DNA from: Opitutia bacterium
Lineage (GTDB): Bacteria; Verrucomicrobiota; Verrucomicrobiia; Opitutales; T3Sed10-336
Reading direction: 5' to 3'
Length of the DNA stretch: 64,000 bases
Assembly (NCBI GenBank): GCA_050506795.1
Contig: JBJHCF010000015.1
Span: 33,030 to 97,029, forward strand
The stretch's first letter is position 1, and each line of letters begins with the position of its first letter. Shown here one piece after another: positions 28,364 through 35,068 of this stretch. Both the position numbers and the translations under genes were made by a program. The notes beneath the pieces were generated by a model. That model had not been told where the DNA came from. It saw only the letters and a program-made list of their open reading frames with translations, and made no database searches.

Positions 28364-29320
28364 ATGAGCTGTTATCCCGCCTCCTGGTTTCTTTGTGGTT
28401 TTTTGGTTTTCAGTAGCGTTGTCTCGGTCGGTCAACCGGCGATTGCCGCGGATAATCCGGAAAGGTGCGAGGGGCGGGGTATTGCTGGTGTCGGCGCAGT
28501 TGACGGGCAGGTGTTGGACCCGGAACAGCCGGCTCCGCGAGAGCTGGTATTGGAAACGTTTCGACAAATGTTGGCTCTGCCTCCGGAGGACCAGATCAAC
28601 TGGGACAAAGCGGTGGAGGCGGGACGGATACCTCCGAACGTCCAGGTTTTGCACGAGTACCTTCGCGATCGGCCGCACGAGGACGTTTGGGACGCGGTGC
28701 CTCCGCCCGAAATGCGGGTCCTCCCAGACGGACGAGAGGTGGAGGTTTTTCCAGTGGAAGTTCTTGGTCCAAACCTGGGGGCGAACGTAACGCAGGAGGA
28801 CCTGGACCGACTGCTGCCGGAATTGGCCGATGCTCATGAACGAATTGAGGCGTATTCGCGAACTCGATACGATGACCCGGACCCCTGGAGTCGCGTTCGA
28901 TTTGAGCCCGAGGATTTTGAAATCGCAATTGCGTACGAGGAGGAACAACCGGGGACGGAGAAGAAGGTGCTTACCCGGGGAGAGGCCGGCATGGAATATT
29001 TCGTGGAGCGAGACCGTCTGCTCGCCGGCCGACATGTCCATCGGGCATGGCAAGTCACGGATGACAGTGGTCGGGCCATTATGTACCTCGATTTTTCCGA
29101 GGAGGGTGCCGAAATTATAGCGCAAGCGACTCGCGAGGCGGTGGGAGGGTACCTTGCCCTGATGGTAAGAGGTGAGCTGCTATCCGTTCCGCGAATTCGC
29201 GCCGAGATCACAGGAGGCGAAGTGAGCATAACCGGTCTTGATCCCGAGACATTCCGGGCGATTATCGAGGAGGGCAAATCGCGTTTTCTGAACGAGAAAA
29301 GCGATCGCCAGGAACAGTGA
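28364..29320 (+). CDS. Secreted protein with a SecD P1-head-like domain
   Basis: Signal peptide; C-terminal LDFSEEGA...LALMVRGELLSVPRIRAEITGGEVSITG. Confidence 0.7.
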   Translation: MSCYPASWFLCGFLVFSSVVSVGQPAIAADNPERCEGRGIAGVGAVDGQVLDPEQPAPRELVLETFRQMLALPPEDQINWDKAVEAGRIPPNVQVLHEYLRDRPHEDVWDAVPPPEMRVLPDGREVEVFPVEVLGPNLGANVTQEDLDRLLPELADAHERIEAYSRTRYDDPDPWSRVRFEPEDFEIAIAYEEEQPGTEKKVLTRGEAGMEYFVERDRLLAGRHVHRAWQVTDDSGRAIMYLDFSEEGAEIIAQATREAVGGYLALMVRGELLSVPRIRAEITGGEVSITGLDPETFRAIIEEGKSRFLNEKSDRQEQ

Positions 29321-29341
29321 AGGCTTATAGGTTGCTAAAGC

Positions 29342-29572
29342 GAGTGGTACTCGGTTAAGGCCGTTGATCGAAACAGCGCAGTCCTGCTTTGGCAAGTTCA
29401 CCAAAAACCACGCCCGGTTTTAAAGCATTGCTGAACTGTGAAGGTTCTCACACGGAGGCACGGAGAGTTCAATCGGACCCACCTCCGTGAGCTCCGTGGC
29501 TCCGTGTGAGTCCAATTTCCGCTGTATTTTTTGCTTCATCAAACGATGAAACGCCTTAACCGAGTGCCATTC
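29342..29572. mobile_element. MITE-like dispersed repeat, family A copy 1
   Basis: 20-bp terminal inverted repeats (18/20 match): GAGTGGTACTCGGTTAAGGC and GCCTTAACCGAGTGCCATTC; homologous to 38210-38467 and 63847-64000. Confidence 0.85.
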
Positions 29573-29575
29573 GGG

Positions 29576-32500
29576 CTAGCGCACTTCGATCTGCGTTCCG
29601 GCACTTTCCGAGCGAACCTCGGGATTGTAGTAATCGTAAATGGCGGCGGTTGGCGCGGTAACGCGCAGGGGATGTTTCGCGCGGAGTTGATAGCTGAATT
29701 GAAAGGGCTGCCGAACGGGTAGTTCGTGCAGGTAGAGAATAAGCTGATTTCCGGTGATCTCGTAGCGTGCGATTCGTTCTCGGGCGACCAGAATGTCGAG
29801 GGAGTCTGCCAGGAGTTCGAACCCGGGAGGCACGCCCAGGTCGATCAACGGCATGAACACCGGGCCGGCGGTCTCGTTCACGACGGTCACGTGCGCGGTC
29901 AGAAGGTCGTTCACGCTGAGGGTCCCCCGATCGTAGGACACCTCGATAGAGAGTGCCTCCGCATTCAATGGGTCCGGTTTGATCTCCTCGGCATCGTCGC
30001 GGACCCAGTAAGAGGCCGCCAATTGCACGCCGAGGTCGCTCGGGTTCCCGGTCTGCAAACGCACGGCATTTTCACCGGTGACTACCTTCGAGGTCAGCGA
30101 AATTAAACGCATGACTTCATACTCCTCCGGCGTGATCTCCAGGCTTTCTACCGGGTCTTCGTTGAGCGAGACCGCGAGCCGAATCGTTTCCTCGGATGCG
30201 GCCACCGTGGACGTCGCCTTGAGAAGGGCCTGTATCGAGAGAATCGTCGCTTGTGTCGATCCGAAATGCCCCCAGGAGGTTCGCTGTCGTGAGATCCATG
30301 ATACAGCCTCGAGCCCAAGTGGAACGGTTGCCGGGTCGTTCAGAAGCACGAGGGCGGCCAGCGCCGTCGCCTCGACGTCCGCGGCACTGCCCGATGAGCG
30401 GGCTATGCTCCGACTTCCCGCCGTCCAGTAAGCGGCGCCACCTTCCACGCTCTGAACGGTCTGCACCAATCGCCGGGCAAAAGCCCTTCCGGTTGCGTCC
30501 GAGCGATCCAGCGCCAGGAGTGCGTTGGCGGCCAGCGCCGTTTCGTACGGCGTCTCGAATTCTCCGGCGTTTCGGCGCAGCCAAGCCGCCCCGGCTTGCA
30601 CGCGCTGACCGCGCTGGTTTGCCGATGCCAGGGACCAGACCGTGTAGGCGGTGGTTAATTGCCGAGAGCCGAATCCGCGACTGTTCCATGATCCGTCCTG
30701 TGCCTGTTCGCCATAAAGCCAGTCCATTGCGCTCGCCGTCACGCTCGGATCCACGGAGTGAATGCGCGCCATGTCAGTGAACTGCCGGACCCCGTAAGCG
30801 GTCAGCCAAACGTTTGCCGGAGAGCGTCCGAACCAATCGAATCCTCCCTCCGGGGTCTGGAAGGTGAGCAGGCGCTGGTAGCCGGTGTTGATGAGCTTTC
30901 GGGCGCGAACCTCAACTTCCGGCGTAAGCGTCTCTGTCTCCTCCAGGTAGGCGAGCACCAGGACATTGGGATAGTTCACCGATGAAGTCTGCTCGAAACA
31001 CCCGAACGGAACCCGCAACAACCCGTCCATTCCGTCCAGGACTTCAGAGAACCGTGACGGATACAACTTCAGCAAAAGCGACTCCGACCCGGGTATAGCG
31101 TTCGCCGGAAAATGCACGCTCCAATCAAGCCCCTCGCCCAGCGCCTCATTAAAAACCGTCTCAAACCGGCGCCCTGTCGGCACAACTCTTACAATCCGTT
31201 CGATCGCGTCGGATTCCCGCTCGCCGATGGCCGTGACCAGAAAGGGGTGTTCGCCGACCTGGACCGCGCGCAACGGAAAATGAATGGCCCTGACTTCGCC
31301 CGGGCCCAGATGCACGGTCACCTCGGCGCCGTCGCCCAGGGGTTCGAACCATTCGTGCTCTTCGAATCGTAAGCGCACCGTCTGTTCCCGGTCGAGGTAG
31401 TTGTAGCAGACAACCGGAAGGGCCACCTCATCCTCGAGTGAAAGTGCGACCGGCAGGTCGAGATCGACAAAAAAACTCTGAAACACCGGTACGCGCACTT
31501 CTCCTTGTCCCATCCTTCCCCGGGCATCCACGATATCGTAGGTTCCCAGCCAGGTCGTAATCGAATCCGCCAACGCCAGGTCGAGGGTGACCCTGCCGGC
31601 ATCGTCGGTGATTAATTCGGGCGCCCAAAGGAGCGTTTCGGGAAAGTCCCTGCGAACCCGCGGCGACTCACCGCTTGCTTCCTCCTGTGCCTGAACGCTG
31701 TCGCGTTCGTTATCCCGGATGACCATGGCCTGCTCGATTTGTCGCAAGTCGCTCGAGTGCACCGTTCGCCGTGCCGACTCACGAACTTTCGAGACCGTTG
31801 GAACAAACCCCGAAATCAGCAGGATCACCAGGAAGAACCAAATGAACGCCTGTACGATTGGAAATCCTGTGCCCGGCCAGGAAGTCGATTTGCGCCGCAT
31901 CCATTTTCCACCCTTGAATCGAACGATCAATCCGGTCAGCAGAGGCAGCAAAATATGAGCGAACCACAGGAGGAGGACTCCGTGCTCATCAAAATGATGA
32001 TAAGCCCACGGCACGGATCCGCGCAGCAGGGCGAATCCGGCGAGATAAAGCCAGGCGGAGGTTATAAGCACGCTCCGAATACGCGGCCCGTCGGTGTCGT
32101 CAGCAGCCGGGATACTGAGGAGAGCCTTCGAGAAAATCACCAACAAAGCCGCCGCCTCGACAACCGTGATTGTCCAGAAGAACGTGGTTTCGCTGATGAA
32201 ATTCAACCCCCAGCGGACATCGTCCAGGAAGACAAAGGTAAAAAAGACTATAGGCGGCACAATGAGGTGAACCGATGCGGCAATCAGGTAAAGATTCACG
32301 CTTCTCAGCAACGAGTAAGCCGTTTCCCTCGATCTCGAGTTCCAGTCTTCACGGATCGCATTTGAGGTTCTGGCGGCACTGGCCACCGAAAGATAAACCG
32401 GCAAGACCAAGAAAGCCAGGAGGCCGAGTCCAAATGCCCCTCCGACCAATACCCTCACCGTACGCTCCCGGGCACGCTCCCGCTCCATGACCTTTCGCGC

Positions 32501-34573
32501 GCCCGTCGCGACCCGTATCGGGTAGAGCGTCTCGGCGCCCTCGATCAATTCAACGATCGGCCCGAATTGCCGGTGATCGCGAAAAAACTCCAACTCGTCC
32601 CGGTCCCTTAATTCCCGCAGATGATCCAACATCGCCCGAGGAATCAATCCTCCATCCACCAGTTCGTCCAGGGGCGAGCCGCGCGGCTCCGACAACGATT
32701 GAAGCCACGCCGCCGCCAGCGCCTGCCGATGCTTGTCGTCGGTCAGCGCCATTAGAGGCGGAACCCGAAATGCGATTTGATAGCGCGGTTTCTGAATATC
32801 GGTTTCCGTATCCAGAAAATCCTGCAGGAGTCCACGCGCCACCGGCTGAACATGCAGGACGCTTTCGTCGATGACTGAGATTCCGATCGCCCCGGGCGTC
32901 GGCGCGCCCTCGGCGTCGTGCACCGAAAAAGTGATTTGAGCGTCATCGCCCGGCCGGTACGGCCCTTCGCGGTCGAGGCGTGTCTCAACCTGCAACCCGT
33001 CGGCCGGAGAAACAAAGATCGTACGCGTCTGTCCGCGAGTTTGGCCTCCCGGTGAAATGACATACACGTTCAGTCGTACCAGGCCGGTAATATCCGATGG
33101 CAACGGAACCGTGAACCGCGCCGTTCGGTTTCGCATGGGAAACGAACGCGTCAGGACCGTTTGCCGCTCTCGGATGGCGTCGAAGAACACGCGGTTCGCT
33201 TCTTCGGTTGAGTACACCGTCACCTCGGCGATCTCGCCGGTCCGATAAACCGCCTTGTCCGTCCGCACCAGCAACGGCGACCGCCCGAAACTGCCGTTCG
33301 CCTGGAATGTCGCGCTCGCCGTCGCGCCGTCCACTGCACGGGCGATCGCTGTAACGCTGAAGTCTTCTTCGGGGGTAGCGCTCCAAACCAGAACGCCATC
33401 TTCACCAGTGGCATACCTCTCCCCGTCGATCTCCACTTCCGCCGCGGCCGGACGTCCGTCGGGATACGACACGAGAACGACGAAATCGTTCTCCACCCCG
33501 GGAACGACCTGACCGCTTTCGGGAAGAATGTCCACCGTCAACCCGGTGGCCGAAAGGGTCAACGGCCGCACGGCCCGCCCCGCCTGGCCCGCCGTGTCCA
33601 CGACCTCGGCCTCCAACTCCAGAAACGCCTGGCCCGCCATTTCAGGACGCCCCGCGAAGAAATCGGGCAATTGAATGGAAAAGGACATGTCACCCGCATC
33701 ATCCGTCCGCCCTTCGATACGGCCGACCTCCCGCTCCTCCTCTTCCAGTGAGAAAGCCCGCACCACCACTGTGGCGGCGCTCACTGGCTGGCCAAAAAAA
33801 TACTCGGCGCTCAAGGTGCCGCTTATTTCGTCTCCGGGGCGGAAGAATGCCCGGTCGATCTCCAGTTCCACCCGAAAACGGGGAAGAACGTAACGCATCA
33901 CTTCGACGCTCCTGGAGGTGTATTCCTCACCATAATACACCCGGATTTCATAGCGGCCGAGACTGACTTCGTCGGCGAGCGCGAAGTCAGTCGATGCGAT
34001 TCCAAACCGGGAAGCGGCGCGTTCGTCCCGGAACACCAGGGCGCCGTCGGCATTGCGGACCTCGAAGCGAAGACGCTCGTTCGCCGCCGGTTGGCTCCGG
34101 ATCGGGTTGGTTGCCAGCGCGCGCAGGTGAATTGTCTGCCCGGGCTGATAGATGGGTTTGTCGGTGGTCAGCAGAACCCGAAGCGGCCGGTAGACCGTCA
34201 CATTGCGCTCGATCCGGTCGCTGCCCCGCCGCGAACGCGTCGCGATTTCCAGGCGATACTCCCCGGGCGGCAGCGACGGAACAAGAACACCCTCACTGAT
34301 CGTACCGCCCTCATCCGTGGAAAACGACCCCAGACCAGAGGTCCTTCCGTCCGAATCGGTCAGGGAGAAGCGGACCGAGGCGCCTTCAATCGGCTCGCCG
34401 TTTCGACGATTCAAAACCGCAACGCGAATCGCGGTCTCGGTTTCGGCGGCCAACCGGTCCTGGCTGAAGACAAATGTCTCATGGGCCTCCGCCGGACGAA
34501 ACAAATATGCCAGAACACCAACCGCCGCGATCACGCCGAACAGCCAGAGCAAGGGGGATTTGAAGATTTTCAT
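29576..34573 (-). CDS. Alpha-2-macroglobulin family thioester protein with internal polytopic membrane insert
   Basis: TDKPIYQPG and RTDKAVYRTG MG domains, RRDFPETLLW, thioester PFGCFEQ, YDYYNPE. Confidence 0.93.
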   Translation of the reverse strand: MKIFKSPLLWLFGVIAAVGVLAYLFRPAEAHETFVFSQDRLAAETETAIRVAVLNRRNGEPIEGASVRFSLTDSDGRTSGLGSFSTDEGGTISEGVLVPSLPPGEYRLEIATRSRRGSDRIERNVTVYRPLRVLLTTDKPIYQPGQTIHLRALATNPIRSQPAANERLRFEVRNADGALVFRDERAASRFGIASTDFALADEVSLGRYEIRVYYGEEYTSRSVEVMRYVLPRFRVELEIDRAFFRPGDEISGTLSAEYFFGQPVSAATVVVRAFSLEEEEREVGRIEGRTDDAGDMSFSIQLPDFFAGRPEMAGQAFLELEAEVVDTAGQAGRAVRPLTLSATGLTVDILPESGQVVPGVENDFVVLVSYPDGRPAAAEVEIDGERYATGEDGVLVWSATPEEDFSVTAIARAVDGATASATFQANGSFGRSPLLVRTDKAVYRTGEIAEVTVYSTEEANRVFFDAIRERQTVLTRSFPMRNRTARFTVPLPSDITGLVRLNVYVISPGGQTRGQTRTIFVSPADGLQVETRLDREGPYRPGDDAQITFSVHDAEGAPTPGAIGISVIDESVLHVQPVARGLLQDFLDTETDIQKPRYQIAFRVPPLMALTDDKHRQALAAAWLQSLSEPRGSPLDELVDGGLIPRAMLDHLRELRDRDELEFFRDHRQFGPIVELIEGAETLYPIRVATGARKVMERERARERTVRVLVGGAFGLGLLAFLVLPVYLSVASAARTSNAIREDWNSRSRETAYSLLRSVNLYLIAASVHLIVPPIVFFTFVFLDDVRWGLNFISETTFFWTITVVEAAALLVIFSKALLSIPAADDTDGPRIRSVLITSAWLYLAGFALLRGSVPWAYHHFDEHGVLLLWFAHILLPLLTGLIVRFKGGKWMRRKSTSWPGTGFPIVQAFIWFFLVILLISGFVPTVSKVRESARRTVHSSDLRQIEQAMVIRDNERDSVQAQEEASGESPRVRRDFPETLLWAPELITDDAGRVTLDLALADSITTWLGTYDIVDARGRMGQGEVRVPVFQSFFVDLDLPVALSLEDEVALPVVCYNYLDREQTVRLRFEEHEWFEPLGDGAEVTVHLGPGEVRAIHFPLRAVQVGEHPFLVTAIGERESDAIERIVRVVPTGRRFETVFNEALGEGLDWSVHFPANAIPGSESLLLKLYPSRFSEVLDGMDGLLRVPFGCFEQTSSVNYPNVLVLAYLEETETLTPEVEVRARKLINTGYQRLLTFQTPEGGFDWFGRSPANVWLTAYGVRQFTDMARIHSVDPSVTASAMDWLYGEQAQDGSWNSRGFGSRQLTTAYTVWSLASANQRGQRVQAGAAWLRRNAGEFETPYETALAANALLALDRSDATGRAFARRLVQTVQSVEGGAAYWTAGSRSIARSSGSAADVEATALAALVLLNDPATVPLGLEAVSWISRQRTSWGHFGSTQATILSIQALLKATSTVAASEETIRLAVSLNEDPVESLEITPEEYEVMRLISLTSKVVTGENAVRLQTGNPSDLGVQLAASYWVRDDAEEIKPDPLNAEALSIEVSYDRGTLSVNDLLTAHVTVVNETAGPVFMPLIDLGVPPGFELLADSLDILVARERIARYEITGNQLILYLHELPVRQPFQFSYQLRAKHPLRVTAPTAAIYDYYNPEVRSESAGTQIEVR

Positions 34574-34656
34574 AAGAAAGGGGGCGAAAGGGTTTTTGCG
34601 TCCGTTTCCTGACTTCCCTGGAGCTTATCGTTTTTCTACAGCGGATCAATAAAAAC

Positions 34657-34674
34657 TTGCAGGCAAAGCGCCAA
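34657..34674 (-). promoter_or_regulatory. Possible sigma-54 promoter for the A2M gene
   Basis: Minus strand TTGGCGCTTTGCCTGCAA has GG-N10-GC, ~85 bp upstream of the start. Confidence 0.35.
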
Positions 34675-34810
34675 CCGGGATGGAGCGGCACCGCCGCCAC
34701 CTGGAATGTGGACGGGCAGATGAGCATGAAGAGTTACCAGCCCTTCCGTGCCCGGAGCCTGCGAACGAAGAAACTATGGGCGAACGTGGTGACAACCGAC
34801 GTATCGGGAA

Positions 34811-35068
34811 TTGACCGGGAGTAAGTCAACGCATCCCGTGGGCGGTGCCGAACGAGAGCAGCAAGAAGCGGGGTTCGTCGATGCCGCAATGGAGCCTATC
34901 GTGTCGGACCTCACAGCGACTTGGAATCACCTCACGGTGGAAAACCTGGAACCGGAAACGACGTATTATTGGACGGTGGAAGCAGTGGTGGACCGCTCCC
35001 GGTCCAATCGCGGTGTTCGTTTGGCCCAGGGCGAACCCTGGCGCGTGGTCATCGGTGGAAACGACTGA
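34811..35068 (+). pseudogene. FN3-domain gene fragment
   Basis: LTVENLEPETTYYWTVEAV is an FN3 C-terminal motif; short ORF with no signal peptide. Confidence 0.45.

Follow-up and report, generated by a model that had tools for sequence, protein, structure and literature searches.

Among bacterial alpha-2-macroglobulins (A2Ms), those of type I carry an N-terminal lipobox. The available text of PMC5764988 describes two types of bacterial A2M: type I (ECAM/YfhM of E. coli, SaA2M of Salmonella) is periplasmic, linked to the inner membrane and equipped with the CxEQ thioester motif, and type II, exemplified by MagD of P. aeruginosa, is held at the inner membrane via MagB, is without CxEQ and belongs to a six-gene operon. 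For the wider A2M/complement family, the accessible part of PMC9156758 treats the linker and the bait as one insert in macroglobulin (MG) domain 6 and describes R730 and F733 as a plug that sets off the conformational change when it retracts; it places the anaphylatoxin domain of complement proteins in the bait slot. Here, we analyse P0001, a protein of 1665 amino acids (aa) encoded by an open reading frame (ORF) on the minus strand at positions 29576-34573 of a 64,000-nucleotide stretch of Opitutia bacterium DNA (hereafter, the window; assembly GCA_050506795.1, contig JBJHCF010000015.1, positions 33,030 to 97,029), which holds six membrane helices and a type IV pilin-like helix in this slot. 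The first-pass annotation of the window had not recognised the architecture, and the literature that we searched, with most subscription journals outside the search, likewise gave no description of an A2M whose bait slot holds membrane helices or parts of a pilin; the architecture is real and conserved and, within the scope of this search, undescribed.

The P0001 ORF has no internal stop and encodes MG domains, a thioester domain and MG8, in this order (Pfam MG2, MG3, A2M_BRD, A2M, TED_complement and A2M_recep), and a fold search returned CD109, C5, C4 and C3. An N-terminal hydrophobic segment (aa 7-25, 34499-34555), predicted to be a signal peptide or an uncleaved anchor, contains no lipobox cysteine and is hydrophobic in the relatives too. 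It is followed by MG2 (aa 133-225; PF01835, E = 4.7e-27) and MG3 (aa 227-305; PF17791, E = 3e-08), together at 33659-34177, by MG5 with the first half of MG6 (Pfam A2M_BRD, aa 436-574, 32852-33268; beta strands in the model described below), and, past the insert, by the second half of MG6 (Pfam A2M, aa 980-1069, 31367-31636), the thioester domain (aa 1176-1451, 30221-31048) and MG8 (Pfam A2M_recep, aa 1574-1655, 29609-29854). The thioester motif is intact, in agreement with the first-pass annotation: PFGCFEQ occupies aa 1189-1195 (31009-30989), with CFEQ at aa 1192-1195 (30989-31000). When structures in the Protein Data Bank (PDB) were ranked by their scores with P0001, CD109 came first (220 bits), followed by A2ML1 (190), human A2M (161), C3 (150), insect TEP1 (145) and Salmonella A2M (52); the second A2M of the same genome, which is of the bMG10 type, scored at most 26 bits against this library. 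By these scores, P0001 is CD109/A2ML1-like rather than Salmonella A2M-like, a kinship that the first-pass annotation had missed. The second A2M (L171:226-8518, on contig C50 of the P0001 genome, G000) is 2000 aa long, has no CxEQ that we could see and adjoins another ORF, which by its motif we take to be a tyrosine recombinase.

The membrane insert in P0001 is genuine and no artefact. Scoring of 8000 candidates yielded 18 homologues, 12 of which align with P0001 over 93% or more of aa 600-1000, with identities of 25-31%, and a single 8410-base contig (unitig) of run X1, possibly the source sample, spans positions 29533-34800 with 0 differences and no joint. An assembly chimera or a recent inactivating insertion could account for the drop of G+C to 0.55 within the insert and for the absence of a P0001 orthologue from 40 relatives (best E = 1.7e-16, 27% identity), but G+C at third codon positions is uniform (0.65-0.71) throughout the gene, and the frame and the thioester are intact. 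Because many relatives share the insert and the gene lies within a single unitig, we consider this explanation already refuted, with a probability close to nil; the chimera at the insert junctions and the unique disruption, which the first-pass annotation had allowed for, both fall away. The subfamily is patchy, with one member, in G301, among 400 genomes of the phylum.

The six helices lie between A2M_BRD and A2M, that is, inside the split MG6. The 19-residue Kyte-Doolittle peaks are at aa 708-726 (2.4), 763-781 (2.2), 801-819 (2.0), 832-850 (1.6, the weakest), 866-884 (2.4) and 906-924 (2.6), spanning window positions 31802-32452, and the sole other peak above 1.5 in P0001 is the N-terminal segment. 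The about six hydrophobic helices in one open frame that the first-pass annotation had noticed are thus present, and two of the checks that it had proposed, a Pfam boundary scan and an AlphaFold model, agree with their position and nature. In an AlphaFold2 model of aa 601-973, the insert is all-helical, with a mean predicted local distance difference test score (pLDDT) of 77.9 (44 sequences), and a model of aa 429-1138 has beta domains on both sides of the insert and a continuous helix at aa 905-964, followed by a low-confidence linker. In order, the insert comprises a linker region with a small helical domain (aa 575-684, 32522-32851), which is periplasmic and common to a two-helix planctomycete group (hhalign probability 96%); a long helix (aa ~685-743, 32345-32521), assigned by hydropathy and the model, that continues into membrane helix 1 (aa 708-726, 32396-32452); membrane helices 2-5 (aa 763-884, 31922-32287), which form a generic bundle that we found in no proteins other than A2Ms or fragments; a basic cytoplasmic loop (aa 885-902, 31868-31921); and the pilin-like segment (aa 903-952, 31718-31867), whose hydrophobic half is helix 6 and whose amphipathic half is periplasmic.

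The topology of P0001 is based on hydropathy, charge bias and the AlphaFold2 model. The loops past helices 1, 3 and 5 contain 5, 1 and 6 K/R residues (12 in total), compared to 1 and 0 in those past helices 2 and 4, and the odd loops are the more basic ones in 17/17, 9/9 and 3/3 six-helix members of three groups. Given this bias, we infer that both macroglobulin halves sit at the outer side of the inner membrane. The first-pass annotation had argued the same from an even number of membrane helices and a basic, positive-inside loop ahead of the last one; this loop indeed has 6 K/R and no D/E, and 61 of the 64 complete loci examined below have 0, 2 or 6 helices.

A Pfam search with the insert alone gave nothing above noise, the ESM Atlas gave no usable match, and Foldseek with the insert model found no match at E <= 0.001; a wide fold search returned generic helical bundles alone, the best of which (Z 11.6) is a designed protein, so that a specific fold is neither shown nor excluded. 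A profile built from the insert minus its pilin helix had 41 matches among 1.84 billion representatives, and the classifiable ones show A2M motifs or are insert-like fragments, none of them shown as a stand-alone membrane protein.

Following the pilin-like helix, about 15-22 low-confidence residues lead to the plug residues R974 and F977. This plug segment (aa 971-983, 31625-31663) is invariant at R974 and F977 in 17 sequences and aligns with A2ML1, CD109 and C3; in A2ML1, the two residues align with chain residues 712 and 715, which correspond to R730 and F733 under an inferred offset of 18. P0001 thus has the A2M/complement layout of linker and bait as one MG6 insert ending in an RxxF plug, and P22 of the pilin segment and the plug lie 39-57 aa apart in 49 members. 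Between helix and plug remains a flexible linker (aa ~959-973, 31655-31699; pLDDT <50 at model residues 531-552), probably the bait; low confidence is confined to aa ~959-980. The first-pass annotation had placed the helices where the bait normally lies; their position in the MG6 slot stands, but the bait is not replaced, the helices being inserted ahead of a residual bait-like linker and the plug. CFEQ is found in 28/29 members of the P0001 group. The downstream catalytic histidine, a mark of the hydroxyl-reactive thioester proteins (C3, C4B, A2ML1), is absent from P0001, which has a gap opposite the CD109 histidine stretch; a histidine is found in 11/26 clade members by a crude motif count.

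On the insert, NCBIfam gave one weak match, to GspG at aa 903-951 (E = 0.1). The same segment matches a pilin gene of its own genome (E = 1.5e-8) and scores 21.9 bits with a profile of 111 pilins, compared to up to 54.7 bits for its relatives, three planctomycete members of which pass the PF07596 cut-off; the automatic Joint Genome Institute (JGI) name of one relative already includes 'pseudopilin PulG'. In pilin numbering, G903 is at -1, F904 at +1, a proline at +2, Q908 at +5 and P925 is P22, so that the segment has the hydrophobic alpha1N, the P22 and the amphipathic alpha1C of a type IV prepilin. Judged by this register and these matches, helix 6 and the helix following it are a type IV pilin alpha1, which the first-pass annotation had missed, albeit an internal one: the segment begins at aa 903 and passes into the linker and MG6, with neither the N-terminal position nor the head of a prepilin, and Q908 takes the place of Glu5. 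In pilins, according to the text available from PMC5059446, alpha1 is one continuous helix and Glu5 is critical for assembly.

The cleavage-site residues G (-1) and F (+1) are present in P0001, exactly in register with P22 and after the basic cytoplasmic loop, and the genome encodes one prepilin peptidase and has 47 GFxxxE matches. Prepilin peptidase requires G at -1. If the enzyme cut between G903 and F904, the C-terminal chain would become a giant minor pilin and the thioester a covalent adhesin on the pilus. We consider this very improbable, as P0001 has P at +2 and lacks the Glu5 critical for assembly, and the C-terminal chain would presumably stay bound to the membrane-anchored N-terminal chain through MG6. 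Among 51 distinct embedded segments, which were chosen by profile score so that percentages at conserved positions are inflated, G/A at -1 is found in 16%, F/L at +1 in 10%, E5 in 61% and P22 in all, compared to G/A at -1 and F/L at +1 in 98-99% of real pilins (n = 111). Only 2/51 embedded segments have a hydrophobic residue next to a retained G/A at -1, and we therefore reject general processing by prepilin peptidase. Given how rarely -1 and +1 are retained, the embedded pilin helix appears to be mostly an uncleavable anchor. Its hydrophobic half is closest to an A2M relative, P0028 (11/22 identical residues), compared to at most 7/22 for any of the 111 pilins and 4/22 for the own pilin discussed next.

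Among 9.87 million in-frame 28-mers of the P0001 genome, the best match to the periplasmic half of the segment is a pilin on contig C36 (G000:C36:20248; 20/28), the next being other pilins (16/28), whereas the same segment of 53 A2M relatives matches at most 14/28. The matching pilin subfamily is found in 128/151 genomes of the order, mostly with one match each. Comparison with orthologous pilins (19/20 loci parsed) gave 19-21/28 for the four best-ranked of the same family and 9-17/28 for the other 15. Codons of the residues shared between P0001 and the own pilin are identical in 4/20 cases (6.9 expected); recent gene conversion is ruled out, the synonymous sites being saturated. In a test of five A2Ms with known hosts, 4/5 tails matched own-host pilins best, or tied within the phylum, and the fifth, L016, was a tie; the tail pools comprised 10-37 sequences, and each of the four foreign pools sampled no more than 15 loci rather than the full set of pilins. 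On visual inspection, P0002, P0009 and P0010, which belong to one clade, carry differing pilin subtypes at the alpha1 place; more than one swap or renewal of the pilin segment has thus taken place, and the half-helix of P0001 would derive from resident pilin genes, or have been renewed by them, at an early date and be kept by selection. The pilin subfamily itself (G000:C36:20248-20979, L173) is present even in genomes below 1 Mb and is a candidate core or major pilin.

Such a match to the host could reflect coupling to the pilus: the uncleavable alpha1 would dock the trap at the platform of the type IV pilus or of type II secretion, or act as a decoy for proteases or attackers directed at the membrane pilin pool. 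The trap would then guard this site, or force or binding there would fire it. The host-match test, the wide distribution of the best-matching subfamily with its four close orthologues, and the divergent codons, which indicate a match that is old and kept, all speak for this reading, as do E5 in 61% of the segments, the GspG heads in 30/76 sister proteins and, in G301, a last A2M helix that resembles the C-terminus of the third of three downstream GspF genes (12/28, pairwise E = 1e-5). Nevertheless, we regard pilus coupling as unlikely: there is no conserved pilus neighbourhood (a pilin gene at 4/80 loci, GspF in no recurring cluster), many members lack the pilin part, selection by profile score inflates the conservation of the segments, and with 17-124 pilin genes per genome, old gene conversion followed by structural selection could give the same host match. 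The host match is compatible with this history as well as with a functional link to the pilus machine. The G301 locus (L172:2388-11458) reads, in order, a gene for an extracytoplasmic function (ECF) sigma factor, the six-helix A2M and the three GspF genes in a row.

On balance, we lean towards P0001 being a monomeric trap that captures proteases covalently in the periplasm, is held in the inner membrane at its trigger site and fires when its periplasmic linker is cut. The chain would leave MG6, descend the long helix, cross the membrane six times and return up the domesticated pilin alpha1, which would anchor the protein, form its stalk and act as the stopper of the R974/F977 plug, at the place that the anaphylatoxin domain takes in C3. 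With a membrane-fixed helix as the stopper ahead of a threaded plug, the trap should fire only if the chain is cut between helix and plug. A protease reaching the membrane face would cut the short linker (aa ~959-973), the plug would retract, and the exposed thioester, provided that it forms, would bind the protease, probably via a lysine, as the missing catalytic histidine makes a preference for lysine or amines probable; the captured protease would remain on the membrane. Several observations weigh against this reading. The P0001 linker has ~15-22 aa, compared to 32 for the A2ML1 bait; the aa 429-1138 model does not fix the domain arrangement (predicted template modelling score 0.36); and a purely structural role of the pilin helix leaves unexplained the 20/28 match to a host pilin (<=14/28 to A2M relatives), the survival of E5 and the repeated occurrence of pilus parts in the slot.

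To place P0001 in its family, we scanned GTDB genomes and identified at least 654 relatives, 80 loci of which were fetched; 64 complete loci were used for bait-region counts, and 16 were dropped as incomplete or unparsed. The bait slot contains no helix in 33 of these loci, two in 14 and six in 14, with three, five and nine helices in one locus each. The GspG head matches 30/76 bait regions, 20 of them above the cut-off; the idea that the small helical domain of P0001 is a decayed GspG head had no support (hhalign probability 2.8%). Larger inserts in the same slot, with ~8-9 predicted helices or ~500 residues, are found in L051, P0055 and L072. In a neighbour-joining tree of 106 C-terminal halves, computed from 584 columns with 100 bootstraps, rooted at the midpoint and with some labels missing, P0001 falls in a clade with 100% support that consists mostly of six-helix, pilin-bearing proteins and also includes two-helix versions; outside it are a planctomycete two-helix group, a second six-helix group, a Chloroflexota six-helix group and the forms with GspG heads. 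The Chloroflexota six-helix members have no pilin helix by the pilin profile, and their homology to the P0001 bundle was seen for the stalk and helix 1 alone (54 columns). The bait slot is thus modular and, as the Chloroflexota members score no pilin helix, the common factor would be a bulky stopper ahead of the linker.

The first-pass annotation had suggested that the trap could be triggered from the membrane or the cytoplasm, that is, that the six-helix bundle relays a cytoplasmic or membrane signal to the thioester, or reports firing inwards. The four-helix bundle is kept across the clade, and gene contexts in the family also favour such a relay. At loci with enough upstream DNA, where kin are not independent, an ECF gene lies directly upstream in 11/13 two-helix loci and 3/4 loci of the second six-helix group, compared to 0/5 in the P0001 clade and 0/7 and 0/18 in other groups; Pfam zf-HC2 matches 4/9 tested N-termini of ECF-linked loci, and a divergent HTH_17 gene accompanies 7/10 loci of the P0001 clade. 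For P0001, however, a transmembrane trigger or sensor seems quite improbable: the protein has no cytoplasmic domain, no N-terminal zinc finger and no ECF gene upstream, the HTH_17 gene was not found in its genome, the loops are short and poorly conserved, the plug is periplasmic, and two-helix versions in the same clade imply that helices 2-5 are dispensable. A cut in a cytoplasmic loop would, moreover, leave the 60-residue helix as a stopper, which argues against a cytoplasmic trigger. The suggestion thus receives little support for P0001 itself, where such a trigger is unlikely, whereas signalling across the membrane is plausible in those sister groups that combine a zinc finger at the N-terminus with an upstream ECF gene. 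In L008, L050, L063, L065, P0051 and other planctomycetes, an N-terminal zf-HC2 and a membrane helix are fused to the A2M, with the ECF gene upstream; these are probably anti-sigma/A2M fusion receptors. At L001, L002, L003 and L174-L177, upstream of the A2M gene, the divergent HTH_17 proteins, which have a C-terminal part with cysteine pairs, are 68-82% identical and the intergenic sequence is similar, as would fit a protein that is probably a dedicated regulator and its site.

The genes flanking P0001 encode a SecDF-head protein and an unnamed secreted protein, and there is no PBP1c neighbour. The former (28364-29320, plus strand) is small, looks secreted and has the SecDF P1-head as its sole domain; its gene is convergent with the A2M gene. 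Directly past the P0001 stop lies a dispersed repeat of ~240 bases (29330-29570) with an internal inverted part and 74 matches in the genome; many copies are near full length at 71-87% identity, and the element resembles a miniature inverted-repeat transposable element (MITE) or repetitive extragenic palindromic (REP) type. Upstream of P0001, a short open stretch without a clear start (34846-35067, plus strand) has no Pfam match and resembles the remnant of a fibronectin-type repeat.

In both described types of bacterial A2M, the bait is plain and the sequence is far removed from the animal proteins, whereas the P0001 subfamily is much closer to CD109/A2ML1 and accommodates membrane bundles and pilus parts in its bait slot; the layout of P0001 also occurs in many uncultured bacteria. 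P0001 offers a natural variant in which the plug-and-channel trigger could be tested with the stopper fixed in the membrane and, if the pilin helix is functional, would link an innate-immunity-type trap to a pilus system. A broader and rather doubtful proposal concerns a widespread family of CD109-like bacterial thioester proteins. Among prokaryotes, this family would be the nearest kin of animal CD109, A2M and complement, and it would employ parts of the pilus as docking handles or as baits tuned to the host: the uncleavable core-pilin alpha1 would tie the trap to the pilus assembly site or mimic a membrane pilin, so that pilin-directed proteases, phages, predators or machine force fire the thioester, and the sister-group receptor would be an anti-sigma factor. 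The subfamily also bears on the origin of the animal A2M/complement family: a CD109-like ancestor is placed inside animals in the available text of PMC9156758, and animal-to-bacteria transfer of A2M is called non-definitive in that of PMC13069473. Our tree includes neither animal nor type I outgroups and is therefore no test of the direction of transfer.

Compared to known systems, P0001 shares with type I A2Ms the periplasmic location, the link to the inner membrane and CxEQ, but it scores 52 bits against the Salmonella structure (PDB 4u48) and is without lipobox, bMG domains (none at E <= 0.1) or a PBP1c neighbour. Like type II MagD, it is held at the inner membrane; MagD/YfaS, however, are without CxEQ or a membrane domain and belong to a six-gene operon, whereas P0001 has both and stands alone. 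With type IV pilins and pseudopilins (TIGR02532, DUF1559/PF07596, GspG), P0001 shares the alpha1 register from -1 to ~+48, including P22, but its segment is internal, headless and has Q at +5, and most relatives are without the cleavage site. Complement C3 and C4 likewise place a module in the bait slot ahead of the plug, as given in the accessible part of PMC9156758; their anaphylatoxin module is soluble, whereas that of P0001 is a membrane bundle, and the Pfam scan found no C-terminal extra domain in P0001. The likeness to human CD109 and A2ML1 (PDB 8s3o, 7q1y) and to insect TEP1 extends to the MG ring, the MG6 insert, CxEQ and the RxxF plug, with P0001 differing by the six membrane helices and the pilin alpha1 in the insert, the short linker and the missing catalytic histidine. 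Finally, CD109 is anchored by a C-terminal glycosylphosphatidylinositol, whereas the anchor of P0001 sits at the bait slot.

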